Notes: a model not told the origin generated them from the sequence alone. A stretch of 64,000 nucleotides of DNA from Escherichia phage vB_EcoM_CRJP21 (OQ708376.1); one strand, 5' to 3'; positions 45,503 to 63,148 are shown, numbered from the stretch's first letter. Program-made: numbers and translations.

Positions 45503-45561
45503 TTGCACCGTACTGATAAAAGCGTATAATGTTTTACATCGAGAGCGGGAACACTTCCCGC
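45503..45561 (+). promoter_or_regulatory. promoter (TTGCAC-N16-TATAAT) + 5' stem-loop AGCGGGAAC-N-TTCCCGCT
   Basis: first of about 25 promoter/5'-hairpin cassettes. Confidence 0.6.
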
Positions 45562-45585
45562 TACACATTAAGAGAGATTAAAACG

Positions 45586-45948
45586 ATGGCGACTCAAATC
45601 AATAAAATCATGCTTAACCTGGTAAACTTCCGCGATGAGATGAAAGGTCTTCCGGCTGAAACTGTAAAAATTCACATTGCAGCTTATCGGGAACTTATTG
45701 CAATGTTGCCGCTTAAGCGTGAACAATACGCCGCTACTTTGATGCTGGATTCAATGATCCATATAATGATCTCAAATGATTTGACGATGGTTTATCAGTA
45801 TATGGGCGAAAATTTCGCGGTGTGTAGTAAGCCAGTACCAGGGATGGCAACAACTGAGGAATTGCACGGCTTAAACTTAAAACAAGATGCATGGGATAAT
45901 ATGCCTCGTTTCCTGGTATGGGCTGACAGTGGCAAAATTTACAAATAA
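45586..45948 (+). CDS. hypothetical protein (120 aa)
   Basis: ORF track 45529-45948; ATG 45586 downstream of promoter and hairpin. Confidence 0.55.
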   Translation: MATQINKIMLNLVNFRDEMKGLPAETVKIHIAAYRELIAMLPLKREQYAATLMLDSMIHIMISNDLTMVYQYMGENFAVCSKPVPGMATTEELHGLNLKQDAWDNMPRFLVWADSGKIYK

Positions 45949-45962
45949 GTTTAATAAAGTAC

Positions 45963-46021
45963 TTGCAAACTATGTTTAATGGCGTATAATGTTTTACATC
46001 AGGTGGGGAATAGTTCCCCAC
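45963..46021 (+). promoter_or_regulatory. promoter TTGCAA-N16-TATAAT + 5' stem-loop GTGGGGAA-TAGT-TCCCCAC
   Basis: consensus hexamers; hairpin at predicted +5 to +25. Confidence 0.6.
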
Positions 46022-46041
46022 TATATAAGAGGATTAAAAAA

Positions 46042-46281
46042 ATGGCTAAATCAAAAATGTTCTTAGGTCACAAAAACAAAACTCATTGGAATGTAAGCCT
46101 TTGGATTAATAACGATGAGGGATTGTATCGGTTGGCCCAGGACTTTATTAACGATAGCACTAATCGCAATGATGCGGCCCGTCATATGATGTTATTTTTA
46201 GAACAGACTGGACAAGATAAAACACCGGACGGATTCAAATATAGCACTACTGCGATCCGTGCGGCGATGGTTGGAATGTAA
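46042..46281 (+). CDS. hypothetical protein (79 aa)
   Basis: ATG 46042 after GAGGAT. Confidence 0.55.
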   Translation: MAKSKMFLGHKNKTHWNVSLWINNDEGLYRLAQDFINDSTNRNDAARHMMLFLEQTGQDKTPDGFKYSTTAIRAAMVGM

Positions 46282-46291
46282 TAGAATTTAT

Positions 46292-46330
46292 TTAAAGTAC
46301 TATCATTTTTTTGCGATAGTACTTTATAAT
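46292..46330 (+). promoter_or_regulatory. palindrome-containing promoter-like element (AAAGTACTATC-N10-GATAGTACTTT then TATAAT)
   Basis: inverted repeat + -10 hexamer; no good -35. Confidence 0.4.
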
Positions 46331-46367
46331 AGTGTTTTATTCATACACCAACGATAAGGGCAACAGC

Positions 46368-46634
46368 ATGAAAATTAAGTATTTTGCGACGCGTGAACAA
46401 GCTCGGATCGCCGCACGCCAGGACGGGGCAACGTTTAAAGATATGGGCGTACAATCGGAACGTGGTAAACGTTGGGCCATTGTAAAGCGTAGTACCGCCA
46501 GATCATTACAGTACTGGTTAGCGGCCTTAAAAAGTCCCGATAGTGTATCGCGTCGAGTGGTAGAAATAAAGCTCGACCGAAAGGGCAACCGCGTGACCGT
46601 GTACCGTACTAAAAAGATTGCAGTACTTGAATAA
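46368..46634 (+). CDS. hypothetical protein (88 aa); paralog of 58345-58740
   Basis: MKIKYFATREQARIAARQDGATFKDMG vs MITKFYATREAARIVAREEGAAFKDMG. Confidence 0.6.
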   Translation: MKIKYFATREQARIAARQDGATFKDMGVQSERGKRWAIVKRSTARSLQYWLAALKSPDSVSRRVVEIKLDRKGNRVTVYRTKKIAVLE

Positions 46635-46642
46635 AAAGTACT

Positions 46643-46700
46643 TGCAAACTATGTTTAATGGCGTATAATGTTTTACATCGAGAGCGGGAACTCTTCCCGC
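46643..46700 (+). promoter_or_regulatory. promoter TTGCAA-N15-TATAAT + 5' stem-loop GCGGGAAC-N-TTCCCGC
   Basis: near-identical to cassette at 45963. Confidence 0.6.
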
Positions 46701-46721
46701 CTATAACCTGGAGTAATGAAA

Positions 46722-46952
46722 ATGACTAATATGTATATGACTGAAGTTAAAACCGTAAAAGATACTACCACGAATAAAACTACTTACTTACAGCGGATCT
46801 GTGGTGTATGGCAACGTATCAGCAAATCAAAGTACTTTAAATTAACATCATATGCAAACCGTTCGGATTCATTCAGTACTGAAATAAAAGGTAATAAAGT
46901 ACACCAATACGGCACTTATTATTATTATAGCCTGGACGCGATTGCAGTATAA
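46722..46952 (+). CDS. hypothetical protein (76 aa)
   Basis: ORF track 46716-46952; ATG 46722 has better spacing from GGAG. Confidence 0.5.
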   Translation: MTNMYMTEVKTVKDTTTNKTTYLQRICGVWQRISKSKYFKLTSYANRSDSFSTEIKGNKVHQYGTYYYYSLDAIAV

Positions 46953-47202
46953 GCAGTTTACAAATCTTTACAATTGCCGGTATTGACTTATTTTGTCAGT
47001 ACTGGCATAATGTATTCATTGGCAGATAAGCCGTAGCCCATAGGGTGCGGGAGTGTATCTATAGAAAAATTAGTTTAGTATAGTTACAATTGTGCACCCG
47101 GTGGGTTAGCTGTTGTCATGGGGTATATTATACCAGTACTTGATAATGCTGTCAATACTTTTTTTTTACTATTCAGTACTGAAAACTATTTTTAAAAAGT
47201 AC

Positions 47203-47348
47203 TTGCAAACTATGTTTAAAGGCGTATAATGTTTTACATCAGGACGGGGAACGAAATAAGTAACTTCCCGTTAAGTAGCCCAGGAGTAAGGCACACGAAA
47301 AACTCCCCTGATAAAATAGTTTGACAAATGTTTTTAAAAGCGTATAAT
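47203..47348 (+). promoter_or_regulatory. tandem promoters (TTGCAA..TATAAT and TTGACA..TATAAT) flanking about 80 nt structured leader
   Basis: two consensus promoters about 118 bp apart; leader holds CGGGGAAC...CCCCG-type hairpins; second copy at 57123-57267. Confidence 0.55.
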
Positions 47349-47380
47349 ACTTACATCAACTACTGAATGAGGGTTACAAA

Positions 47381-61632: not shown

Positions 61633-61651
61633 CACTAAAAGGAGTAATAAA

Positions 61652-61876
61652 ATGGCTAACTTTGATGAACTGATGCGGGAAGTAGCTAACCTGGCAGAAG
61701 AGAAGAAATCATTCGATTCTATCTATAACACCGCTCACCGTGATTCAGTACTGGCATGTACTCAGGATCAAAAAGATGAACTAATCGCCACCTATCATGA
61801 AGCATGGAAGTACTACCGACAATGGGAGAAAGAAGAAAGTGAGTCTACCATTGACGGCCTCAATAATCTAATCTAA
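61652..61876 (+). CDS. hypothetical protein (74 aa)
   Basis: AAGGAGT RBS. Confidence 0.55.
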   Translation: MANFDELMREVANLAEEKKSFDSIYNTAHRDSVLACTQDQKDELIATYHEAWKYYRQWEKEESESTIDGLNNLI

Positions 61877-61887
61877 AAGTTTTATTT

Positions 61888-61923
61888 CAGTACTATTGAC
61901 ATAGCTTGATAGTACTGATGTAA
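61888..61923 (+). promoter_or_regulatory. palindrome-containing promoter (AGTACTATTGACATAGCTTGATAGTACT)
   Basis: same architecture as 51227. Confidence 0.5.
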
Positions 61924-61952
61924 TAACTTTACTAACTACAAGGGGAAACATA

Positions 61953-62210
61953 ATGGAACAGTTCACACAATATCGGGTAAATCCTCAAGCTATGGCCTAC
62001 GTAGAAGACCATAAAACATTACCAGTACTGCAACCAGTTAAAGGCCATATCTATCGTGCTATGTCGTGGAGTACTGCACAGGATGGATATAAAACCGTTG
62101 CCGTGGGTATGTATTGCGGGAATGGTGAATGGTTTGATCCAAATAATCCGGTAGCCATTGACAGTACTGAAAAAATGAAATGGGCCGACTACATCGAAGA
62201 TATTTCATAA
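61953..62210 (+). CDS. hypothetical protein (85 aa)
   Basis: AAGGGGAAAC RBS. Confidence 0.5.
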   Translation: MEQFTQYRVNPQAMAYVEDHKTLPVLQPVKGHIYRAMSWSTAQDGYKTVAVGMYCGNGEWFDPNNPVAIDSTEKMKWADYIEDIS

Positions 62211-62216
62211 AACTAT

Positions 62217-62280
62217 TTGACAGTACTAACCAGTAATGTATAATGTTTTACATAGAGCGGGGGAATAGTTCTCCCGTCAA
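62217..62280 (+). promoter_or_regulatory. promoter TTGACA-N16-TATAAT + 5' stem-loop
   Basis: cassette architecture. Confidence 0.6.
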
Positions 62281-62299
62281 TAGTTTGGAGTAAAACATT

Positions 62300-62500
62300 A
62301 TGTCTATCGCTATCGCCCTGGTTGAAGTACTGAAAGAAGCTAAAGCCAACCTTATCGATGTACAGATTAAGGAATTACAAAATGGTTTAATCGGCTGTAC
62401 TTGTACCGCTGGTGGAGCGGCAGACTATCGGGAATTCGAATCACTTGAATCGATGGTCCGTTATCTTACCATGATCGTAGAAGATTGGAGAATCATCTAA
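62300..62500 (+). CDS. hypothetical protein (66 aa)
   Basis: GGAGTAAAAC RBS. Confidence 0.5.
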   Translation: MSIAIALVEVLKEAKANLIDVQIKELQNGLIGCTCTAGGAADYREFESLESMVRYLTMIVEDWRII

Positions 62501-62518
62501 CAAAAAAGAATAAAAAAA

Positions 62519-62554
62519 GGGATTGACTCCGGTCAGTCCCTTTGCTATTATATA
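62519..62554 (+). terminator. bifunctional terminator/promoter element
   Basis: GGGATTGAC-TCCG-GTCAGTCCC; TATTAT downstream. Confidence 0.6.
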
Positions 62555-62664
62555 CTCATAGACAAAAACTAGCCCACTGGGTGCAGGAGTGTATCTAAAA
62601 TATATAGTTAATAACGGTGAGTAACTATCTGCTGGTGGGGTGAAAACTATTAATAAAAAAAGTA

Positions 62665-62695
62665 TTGACAAAGTATATCAGTACTGCAATAATGT
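62665..62695 (+). promoter_or_regulatory. promoter TTGACA-N17-GCAATAAT
   Basis: hexamers read; -10 weaker. Confidence 0.45.
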
Positions 62696-62746
62696 ATCTC
62701 GTAGGGCGGCAATGGTGCGACGGCCCACAAAGTTAGGAGATTCAAA

Positions 62747-63079
62747 ATGAGTACTTCAATCGCTATCGTTAAAGCTTTCATCCGTACCAATGTTTCATCT
62801 GTATTCATCGACGGTCTGGATCGGGAAGTAGAATACTCAATCATTATCGCACAGACTGCAAACGGTGCTCGGTATATCCTTAATGATAGTGAAGCAAATC
62901 ACTACTACTTCACTAAAGCTACTGGCTTTAAACGCATCGATGCTGACGTAGTATACACTAAGATGAATAAGCTGGTAGACAAGATTAACGCGAAAGGTAC
63001 TATCGATTTACAGTACTGGACCGAAACCGATCCAGAATATGGATCTCACCGCTACCTGAATCCAGGTATTAAAATGTAA
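62747..63079 (+). CDS. hypothetical protein (110 aa)
   Basis: TTAGGAGAT RBS. Confidence 0.55.
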   Translation: MSTSIAIVKAFIRTNVSSVFIDGLDREVEYSIIIAQTANGARYILNDSEANHYYFTKATGFKRIDADVVYTKMNKLVDKINAKGTIDLQYWTETDPEYGSHRYLNPGIKM

Positions 63080-63085
63080 AAAGTA

Positions 63086-63148
63086 CTTGCATAGTACTTA
63101 GAATCAAGTATAATGTTTTACATAGAGAGGGGGAAATGGTTCTCCCTC
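63086..63148 (+). promoter_or_regulatory. promoter TTGCAT..TATAAT + 5' stem-loop GAGGGGGAA-ATGG-TTCTCCCTC
   Basis: cassette architecture. Confidence 0.6.

Follow-up and report, generated by a model that had tools for sequence, protein, structure and literature searches.

An Asteriusvirus jumbo coliphage with putative portable early-gene expression cassettes in its direct terminal repeat

The DNA analyzed here, 64,000 nucleotides (nt) of Escherichia phage vB_EcoM_CRJP21 (OQ708376.1; the whole stretch is referred to hereafter as the window), carries toward its right-hand end an array of small genes. Upstream of nearly half of them stands a single repeated design of about 100 bp, a predicted near-consensus promoter followed by a hairpin at the head of the message and a ribosome-binding site (referred to hereafter as the cassette). 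By sequence match the window is from an Asteriusvirus (121Q/PBECO4-like) jumbo coliphage: a megablast of positions 45400-53400 against a phage collection matched Asteriusvirus E. coli jumbo phages, with identities of 96.9% over 98% of the query for EC.P1, 97.8% for fEgEco12, 87.9% for 121Q and 88-98% for other Asteriusvirus genomes. In blastn comparisons with fetched loci, window position 43849 pairs with nt 1 of both fEgEco12 and vB_Ec-M-J, and position 64000 with the last nt of their direct terminal repeats (DTRs; 20,993 and 21,525, respectively). The fEgEco12 DTR of 20,993 bp has termini placed by PhageTerm and restriction digests (PMC13070987), and that of vB_Ec-M-J is annotated at 1-21525. 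From this end-to-end alignment the window is taken to be the last 64 kb of the linear genome, with the following feature at its end:

43849..64000, + strand: by alignment, the right-hand copy of a ~20.2-kb DTR (blastn against fEgEco12 and vB_Ec-M-J)

The first 1.65 kb of this repeat is non-coding and is followed by ~50 small + strand open reading frames (ORFs); past the end of the DTR, gene packing turns operon-style and overlapping.

A pattern scan of the window for TTGCAA-N16-TATAAT, with up to 2 mismatches allowed, gave 51 matches against 23 expected, the perfect and one-mismatch ones clustering at 45.5-63.1 kb on the + strand. A script that required a -35/-10 pair and then, 8-15 nt past the -10, a G+C-rich stem of 7-9 bp closing a loop of 3-5 nt returned 22 promoter-plus-hairpin units with promoters within 45503-63114, all on the + strand, and one more at 19038; its scan of the minus strand returned no such unit. 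Strong hairpins in the + sense number 58 in the window (3-11 in 20 dinucleotide shuffles), and of twelve promoters in the repeat that a separate consensus scan scored 12 of 12, eleven are on the + strand.

The order of elements within a unit is constant. An A/T-rich upstream stretch ends in AGTAC, with AAAAAGTAC preceding the -35; TTGCAA or TTGACA, a 16-nt spacer and TATAAT come next, and ~7 nt further lies an A after C (the presumed start site), then a tail of 4-6 nt, the stem-loop, a linker, the Shine-Dalgarno (SD) sequence and the ATG. In the idealized unit the hairpin has 8 bp, with one purine and one pyrimidine arm, and begins ~6 nt from the presumed start. The predicted leader is ~45-50 nt long and begins AUC(A/G)AG or AUAGAG. 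Two more cassette-type promoters, at 47203 and 57115, lead into ~75-nt structured non-coding leaders, and that at 62665 has a different hairpin. The cassettes found by the promoter-hairpin script are as follows (promoter start to ATG):

45503..45588, + strand: cassette; -35 TTGCAC, -10 TATAAT; hairpin 45544-45562 (AGCGGGAA-cac-TTCCCGCT); ATG 45586; ORF to 45948, 120 amino acids (aa)
45963..46044, + strand: cassette; hairpin 46002-46022; ORF 46042-46281, 79 aa, DUF7249; high-scoring segment pairs (HSPs) overlap at 45958-46037 against vB_Ec-M-J and PBECO4
46642..46718, + strand: cassette; hairpin 46684-46700; ORF 46716-46952, 78 aa
48005..48087, + strand: cassette; hairpin 48046-48064; ORF 48085-48249, 54 aa; another ORF stands here in five relatives
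48260..48340, + strand: cassette; hairpin 48300-48319; ORF 48338-48559, 73 aa
48728..48805, + strand: cassette; hairpin 48764-48783 with 2 G·U pairs; ORF 48803-49039, 78 aa; ORF and cassette not in 121Q
49045..49126, + strand: cassette; hairpin 49086-49104; ORF 49124-49423, 99 aa, with a signal-peptide-like N-terminus
50594..50679, + strand: cassette; hairpin 50634-50655 with 2 G·U pairs; ORF 50677-50904, 75 aa; breakpoint within the hairpin in three relatives
50914..50993, + strand: cassette; hairpin 50954-50973 (GGGGAGAA-atga-TTCTCCCC); ORF 50991-51203, 70 aa; 96% identical in A73
52498..52578, + strand: cassette; hairpin 52538-52557; ORF 52576-52728, 50 aa; HSPs overlap at 52489-52562 in five relatives (extra ORF between two cassette copies)
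53090..53171, + strand: cassette; hairpin 53131-53149; ORF 53169-53510, 113 aa
53525..53609, + strand: cassette with TTGACA and a TG-extended -10; hairpin 53565-53584; ORF 53607-53819, 70 aa
55640..55717, + strand: cassette with a weaker -10, TATAGT; hairpin 55679-55697; ORF 55709/55715-55903, ~62 aa
56261..56340, + strand: cassette; hairpin 56301-56320; ORF 56338-56550, 70 aa
57571..57656, + strand: cassette; hairpin 57611-57630; ORF 57654-57836, 60 aa; ORF and cassette not in 121Q
57840..57928, + strand: cassette; hairpin 57882-57900; ORF 57926-58249, 107 aa; paralogue of ORF 51295-51618
60388..60470, + strand: cassette; hairpin 60429-60448; ORF 60468-60689, 73 aa
60693..60776, + strand: cassette; hairpin 60733-60751; ORF 60774-61046, 90 aa; HSPs overlap at 60688-60786 in three relatives
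61242..61323, + strand: cassette; hairpin 61282-61302; ORF 61321-61584, 87 aa; ORF and cassette not in 121Q
61577..61654, + strand: cassette; hairpin 61615-61633 (GGGGGAG-atatc-CTCCCCC), ~3 nt past the presumed start; ORF 61652-61876, 74 aa
62217..62302, + strand: cassette; hairpin 62257-62277; ORF 62300-62500, 66 aa
63087..63171, + strand: cassette; hairpin 63127-63148; ORF 63169-63570, 133 aa
19038..19115, + strand: the sole cassette outside the repeat; hairpin 19075-19095 (GGGGATGA-acttc-TCATCCCT); ORF from 19113, 184 aa

A first-pass annotation of this DNA had described about 25 single-gene cassettes with near-consensus promoters, and the scans support such cassettes, with promoters of the sigma-70 type, as predicted units; the consensus sequences it gave are accurate (AAAGTACTTGCAA..TATAATGTTTTACAT for the promoter; GGGGAGAA/TTCTCCCC, GCGGGAA/TTCCCGC and GGGGAAA/TTTCCCC for the stems). 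The array it recognized is real, with a strict count of 22 by the script scan. Its statement that nearly every gene has a promoter-hairpin of its own went too far, as only 22 of the ~50 repeat ORFs do; ~11 have a promoter of a hairpin-less class, and the remainder either depend on translational coupling or have no promoter. ORF lengths, put at 50-200 aa, run from 50 to 144 aa, and the SD sequence, put at about 15 nt past the stem, lies about 8-12 nt from it, with a median of 19-20 nt (range 14-26) between stem end and ATG. Three points lay outside that annotation: that the array is the DTR, that the cassettes are recombination joints, and that a precedent has been published for T4-type phages.

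Selection on the hairpin was followed with a covariance model built from six copies of the same geometry, which was used in place of a whole-cassette MAFFT alignment, in which the stems were out of register. Across the window and seven related loci (263 kb, both strands) the model made 141 matches, 141/141 of them on the + strand. Among these matches, which comprise 90 distinct sequences, standard pairs fill 97.3% of cells and double-sided changes occur at 6/8 stem pairs; compensatory cells number 70, against 21 in column shuffles (0/500 shuffles reach the observed value), and sliding the partner by 1-3 columns lowers pairing to 61-85%. This covariation across copies, a check that the first-pass annotation had proposed, bears out its conserved stem-loop as a real, selected structure. 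G·U pairs outnumber A·C mismatches by 55 to 9 (p = 3.5e-9), and because an A·C on this strand is a G·U on the other, the asymmetry indicates that it is the sense strand that folds. The hairpin is thus a selected sense-strand structure, most simply one of RNA, although a hairpin of + strand single-stranded DNA would still fit the G·U asymmetry.

The copies differ from one another within a fixed design. There are 17 distinct stems among 23 copies, and the loops vary in sequence and length (AUGG, UAG, ACGG, AUGA, AUAG, ACAUC), whereas the 5′ arm is 96% purine, its polarity is invariant, the loop-closing pairs are A-U in 20-22/23 copies and pairs 5-6 are almost always G-C. A scan of the whole window at Rfam gathering thresholds found no family, and a scan for tRNA and tmRNA found none. 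Lambdoid boxB/nut hairpins combine a 5-bp stem and a conserved purine-rich pentaloop with a boxA; they were rejected as a model for the present hairpins, which have stems of 7-9 bp and variable loops of 3-5 nt (boxA was not searched for). As a separate observation, the loop is often AUGG or AUGA, and an AUG at or near the loop is in frame with the ORF in four cassettes (48308, 50620, 52546, 63136), that at 50620 lying within the promoter, upstream of the hairpin. These upstream AUGs, most of them enclosed in the stem-loop and badly placed relative to any SD sequence, are probably silent; gene callers could nevertheless mis-start at them.

The geometry of the leader is equally regular. The stem starts 12-13 nt past the -10 in ~85% of the 141 copies and stops 20 nt (median; range 14-26) short of the ATG, both in every genome tested; an expectation that the stem-to-AUG distance would be better conserved than that from start to stem was not borne out, both being tight. 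With the presumed start at the A of CAT 8 nt past the -10, the 5′ tail before the stem is 1-6 nt long (median 5). Beyond the stem, the ~20-nt linker is 54% A (34% for the DTR), and the SD sequence is fully unpaired in 14/22 minimum-energy folds. Folds of the leader (hairpin and linker) lie between -10.6 and -15.9 kcal/mol; when the 5′ arm is taken away, at least 4 SD nt pair in 15/22 copies, in only weak alternative pairings of -0.8 to -8.2 kcal/mol, and sequestration of the SD by the pyrimidine arm would on this modeling be no more than remotely possible. A T-run follows the cassette stem in 0/22 cases, as the first-pass annotation had stated, and a terminator scan called none of the cassette hairpins; separate T-run terminators split the DTR into blocks, some with near-identical stems (58763, GGCGGGA-tcagt-TCCCGCC-TTTTTT; 48564). 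Lacking a U-run and placed downstream of the presumed start, the cassette hairpin is, as read from its sequence, not an intrinsic terminator. The NAD-capping promoter consensus does not appear to fit these promoters.

Outside the DTR, cassettes are all but absent, both in the window and in relatives. The repeat holds 22 of them in the window, 23 in fEgEco12, 25 in vB_Ec-M-J and 17 in the homologous stretch of 121Q; those of fEgEco12 all fall at 1663-20080 of the 20,993-bp repeat, those of vB_Ec-M-J all within 1-21525, and the fetched flanks of fEgEco12, vB_Ec-M-J and 121Q contain none. The 43.8 kb of unique window sequence holds the single cassette at 19038. The same layout recurs inside the annotated DTR of Klebsiella phage fENko-Kae01 (stem GGGGGAA-acatc-TTCCCCC, ~3 nt past the presumed start), which belongs to a different genus cluster from Asteriusvirus (PMC13070987). 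A strict pattern scan of IMG/VR found only 121Q and one 109-kb contig, the uncultured viral contig IMGVR_UViG_3300007747_000009 (108,897 bp), with at least 8 covariance-model matches in 12.6 kb; similarity of this contig to known phages is only ~5% at the nucleotide level, with the best partial matches among jumbo phages of Salmonella, Klebsiella, Erwinia, Yersinia and Serratia. A blastn query with one 99-nt cassette matched, at 90-96% identity, the ~140-kb Vequintavirinae phages A73, W70, A7_1, A5-4, UPEC06 and LTH01, which are unrelated to Asteriusvirus, and found no T4-type phage. A73 carries three cassettes (one 96% identical) together with six DTR ORFs at 73-87% identity, in a reordered arrangement (47.2, 50.6, 53.6, 46.0, 53.25, 48.8 and 57.3 in window kb).

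Where relatives have gained, lost or replaced genes, cassettes mark the boundaries. Chained blastn HSPs of the repeat against six relatives (one of them CMSTMSU, which is flagged UNVERIFIED, has few cassettes and was used only as one of the six comparators) define 21 distinct structural differences, of which 13 have at least one endpoint inside a cassette (null mean 4.0, maximum 10 in 5000 trials); counted singly, 19/42 endpoints lie within cassettes, which cover 11% of the repeat (p = 2e-8). Flanking HSPs overlap on the cassette at 45958-46037, 52489-52562, 53081-53175 and 60688-60786, and at these sites exactly one extra ORF lies between two cassette copies in one genome. One ORF together with its cassette is present in the window and absent from 121Q at 48764-49037, 57660-57828 and 61280-61568. 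Exact tracts of up to 54 bp are common to cassette copies.

The explanation that we favor, to which we give about even odds (roughly 0.5), is that these are portable early-gene expression cassettes filling the Asteriusvirus DTR. The promoter would be read by unmodified host RNA polymerase (sigma-70), and the hairpin would be an RNA module of the leader through which every attached ORF acquires the same folded 5′ region: it would lock up G-rich and C-rich tracts, leave the A-rich ribosome-binding linker open whatever ORF follows, and make the message somewhat more stable. Homology for cassette-by-cassette recombination would at the same time come from the conserved ~100-bp unit as a whole, as with the promoter-early stem-loop (PeSL) elements of T4-type phages. 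The cassette itself, its RNA structure and the shuffling of its genes are very probably as described; the role of the hairpin as an insulator or stabilizer is put forward more tentatively.

Several observations weigh against this explanation. Folding z-scores of single copies are modest (-1.1 to -3.8), so that the case for structure rests on the population of copies and not on any one of them. Since selection removes breaks within genes, any intergenic DNA should show breakpoints somewhat in excess. About 11 DTR genes have promoters of the hairpin-less class, and one protein family stands behind both kinds of promoter (ORF 51295-51618 behind a hairpin-less promoter and ORF 57926-58249 behind a cassette; 37% identity, E = 2e-27); expression as such therefore does not require the hairpin. 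Arm polarity and the A-U closing pairs are conserved beyond what a generic insulator needs, which could reflect a sequence-specific partner or simple concerted evolution. The 4-6 unpaired 5′ nt of most leaders would be enough for RppH and RNase E, so that any stabilizing effect may be small. Finally, a literature search found no transcriptome for any Asteriusvirus or RaK2-like phage, and promoter activity and use, early timing and start sites are therefore read from the sequence, as is the role of the hairpin.

The conserved features of the arms bring in a different role, in which the hairpin, perhaps with the AUCRAG tail, would be the site for a phage or host RNA-binding protein or endoribonuclease that switches ~22 early messages on or off together, for example by ending early translation or triggering decay at the early-to-middle transition, by analogy with T4 RegA/RegB or with the operator hairpins bound by RNA-phage coat proteins. 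Such a site would explain why conservation (purine arm, closing A-U, G-C at pairs 5-6) exceeds the need for pairing, why the hairpin is tied to one promoter class and never alone, and why its design is kept across genera. It would also suit the fixed distances to start and AUG: a point ~20 nt upstream of an AUG is close to the 5′ edge of 30S subunit coverage, and a protein bound to a stem that ends there could block initiation. The loop nevertheless varies in sequence and length, the 17 stems among 23 copies contain GGAG only in some cases, no candidate binding protein emerged, the cassette ORFs are without recognizable domains, and common descent with recombination among copies can explain the conservation. 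A RegB-type GGAG target was itself considered and set aside, GGAG occurring in only some stems (no search for a RegB homologue was made). With a variable loop and no partner in sight we prefer, tentatively, the leader fold; invariant arm polarity and closing pairs keep the regulator site, which the first-pass annotation had also suggested, alive as a doubtful alternative. The leaders of T7 gene 10, ompA and papA carry 5′-terminal stem-loops with shown stabilization, and a classical protective stem-loop of this kind, which would prolong early messages by shutting out RppH and the 5′ sensor of RNase E, is a further, unlikely, reading. In its favor, the hairpin is 5′-proximal in every copy and every genus examined, the layout is close to that of the T7 gene 10 leader (a purine-arm hairpin, then an A/U-rich linker with the SD), the presumed tail shortens to 1-3 nt in GCAUAGGGGG-type copies (48728, 61577), in fENko-Kae01 and in the IMG/VR contig, and weak extra pairs in several copies reach within 1-4 nt of the start. 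It has to contend with the median tail of 5 nt, itself dependent on a predicted start site, since the two enzymes need at least 2 unpaired 5′ nt and prefer at least 3 (PMC8833179), and substrates with a pAUCA tail before the stem are cut rapidly by RNase E (PMC11194081). An obstacle to RNase E scanning was likewise rejected, simple orthogonal stem-loops having given negligible protection (PMC11194081). The stabilization of 5′ ends suggested in the first-pass annotation is accordingly possible, and weakened by the tail of 1-6 nt.

The two readings that remain would place the action of the hairpin in transcription or in DNA. Attenuation or termination as in T4-type PeSLs, damping read-through from upstream and tempering strong promoters, has a precedent in RB49, where a PeSL stem-loop of similar composition (G-run, loop, C-run) cut lacZ expression about as strongly as rrnB T1 (PMC2839356), and the near-identical stems of the DTR terminators at 58763 and 48564 point the same way. 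We consider it quite improbable for the cassettes: the 22 hairpins have no T-run, each lies inside its own transcript and would cut off its own gene, and the true terminators are separate, at block boundaries. The inverted repeat could instead be a DNA operator for a dimeric repressor at +6 to +26, just past the start, as is typical of operators, or a cruciform or single-stranded DNA structure that promotes recombination, in keeping with joints in or beside the hairpin and with the RB49 crossover within the loop (PMC2839356). An operator, which the first-pass annotation had also allowed, is disfavored because changes in one arm are compensated in the other, as would not be the case for independent half-sites drifting to a consensus, and the excess of G·T over A·C (55 to 9) would be meaningless for duplex DNA or a symmetric cruciform; we regard a role of this kind as highly improbable. 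A broader and more speculative extension of the favored explanation, which we hold to be rather doubtful, would make the DTR a platform for gene capture and exchange, with the unit serving both as expression signal and as recombination site; ORFs would move as cassettes, possibly as excised circles, within the genome, between jumbo genera and into unrelated myoviruses such as Vequintavirinae, their shared hairpin might answer to one RNA-level regulator, and the logic would resemble that of an integron in a virulent phage.

The attached genes give little away. Eighteen of 19 cassette ORFs have no Pfam family, the other being DUF7249, and 10/10 PHROG families tested are of 'unknown function'. 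Also encoded in the repeat, to go by the annotation of relatives, are a DksA-like zinc-finger protein, a GNAT acetyltransferase and a kinase-like protein, with a weak Pfam kinase hit for the last. The host-takeover module of the first-pass annotation is thus plausible by position, in a terminal repeat with host-type promoters, and finds no echo in these family assignments; we infer it from position and promoter type only. A second pair of paralogues, 46368-46634 and 58345-58740, shares 35% identity (E = 2e-19). The hairpin-less promoters consist of TTGACA, N16-17 and an often TG-extended CATAAT or TATAAT, then TTTTATCAAC or CTTACATCAAC, and may be timed differently:

51223, 53839, 54109, 54632, 55223, 57231, 58272, 59054, 59330, in the repeat: hairpin-less promoters

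Composites of another family read AAAGGG(A)TTGAC-tycg-GTCAG(T)CCCTTT and then (T)GCTATWAT, such that the stem of a T-run terminator holds the -35 of the next promoter; the family matches the RB49 PeSL subclass in which the stem-loop overlaps the -35 (PMC2839356):

10219-10253, 13461, 13646, 15221, 16305, 20799, 22083, 24038, 52961-52996, 56988-57023, 60258-60293, 62516-62551: terminator-promoter composites

Each composite in the repeat is followed by a conserved ~60-nt non-coding unit (...AGCCCACAGGGTGCAGGAGTGTATCT...; 52995-53075, 57022-57100, 60292-60385, 62551-62620), and related units lie near 45100, 47040 and 54690, with reverse-strand versions near 45150-45222, 47100-47155 and 48610-48694. 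These are possible small RNAs, with folding z-scores of only -0.2 to -1.4 and no Rfam match. At 47203-47320 and 57115-57230 a cassette-type promoter precedes a ~75-nt non-coding closed fold (AUCAGG...CCUGAU; z = -2.0 and -2.5), directly followed by a second promoter and gene; the unit is also found in the Vequintavirinae phage A73 and is a small-RNA candidate.

The 8-bp palindrome CAGTACTG occurs 59 times in the whole window against 0.9 expected (e.g. 4151, 19052, 44371-44404, 45385, 45438, 60358), and AGTACT occurs 280 times in 64 kb where ~16 would be expected of a random 6-mer. Coding as well as non-coding stretches contain sites of this type; many -35 boxes have one immediately on their 5′ side (AGTACTTGCAA), and promoter spacers carry them too (TAGTACTGTATAAT). 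Because phages usually avoid palindromes, CAGTACTG/AGTACT looks like a genome-wide binding or modification motif. The stretch 43849-45500 has no ORF and is rich in CAGTACTG and in short direct repeats, such as cagtactgaataatagtactcctatatagaaag at ~45385 and 45438, and is a candidate packaging-end or origin region. Elsewhere in the window, genes of ~380 aa follow one another in tandem on the minus strand (29610-37105). The annotation of 121Q and SP27 gives them as RCC1-like 'DNA condensation' proteins, and each is followed by the same terminator (GCCAGTAC-nnn-GTACTGGC and a T-run).

These results give an architecture to the least understood part of Asteriusvirus and related jumbo genomes, ~50 genes of unknown function of which nearly half have one standard promoter-leader in common. 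Should promoters and leaders work as the sequence suggests, the immediate-early regulon of therapy-candidate phages would be defined, a compact, portable and very strong E. coli expression unit would be at hand, and the PeSL idea of modular gene exchange would extend beyond T4-like phages, including exchange between unrelated families, which bears on how phages acquire host-takeover and anti-defence genes.

Among known systems, phage T5 has a ~10-kb terminal repeat that carries its pre-early genes, and its two-step DNA transfer has been shown. Both repeats are long DTRs with small genes behind strong host-polymerase promoters, presumed to be first expressed and host-directed, and the window, with genes of predicted host-type promoters inside a long DTR, has the T5-like layout; the T5 repeat has far fewer genes and is without a repeated promoter-hairpin unit. 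The T7 gene 10 leader likewise places a short hairpin with a purine-rich 5′ arm at the start of a highly expressed message, followed by an A/U-rich unstructured linker and a strong SD, and is portable to any ORF; it differs in having its stem at +1 of a phage-polymerase transcript, where here the stem is predicted ~5 nt into a transcript of host sigma-70 polymerase. A literature search found no earlier description of the cassette in Asteriusvirus or other RaK2-like phages. For the related jumbo phage CBB, 18 RpoD-like promoters with an UP-like element have been reported before short hypothetical genes and proposed to be early, some of them in a ~22-kb terminal repeat, with no hairpin, cassette structure or recombination role described (Buttimer et al. 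2017, PMC5259590).

The closest counterparts are the PeSLs, mobile regulatory cassettes of the T4-type phages RB49/phi1, PST/T4 and nt-1/KVP40 (Arbiol et al. 2010, PMC2839356; Comeau et al. 2014, PMC4122927). Like the present cassettes, PeSLs are intergenic repeats of ~75-100 bp in which an A/T-rich upstream stretch and an early promoter near the sigma-70 consensus are joined to a stem-loop of the G-run/C-run type and to an SD sequence with start codon; both are concentrated in a hyperplastic region of small ORFan genes, and in both, the elements mark the limits of indels and replacements that separate close relatives, among them differences of one ORF plus one element. PeSLs can also form mini-circles (PMC2839356, PMC4122927). 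Their stem-loop is upstream of, between or overlapping the -35 and -10, or just before the start, and has been treated (and tested once) as a terminator of upstream transcription (PMC2839356, PMC4122927). Set against these positions, which follow the papers' description, the hairpin here is always in the leader, downstream of any plausible start, at fixed distances and without a U-run; the host genome is moreover that of an Asteriusvirus jumbo phage and not strictly T4-like, and the array coincides with the DTR. The position of the hairpin in the 5′ untranslated region brings into question 'terminator' as a general description of the stem-loop in elements of the PeSL class. As far as sequence comparison can tell, the likeness lies in design and not in detectable homology, such that the cassettes appear to be a variant of the same kind of element rather than a member by descent.

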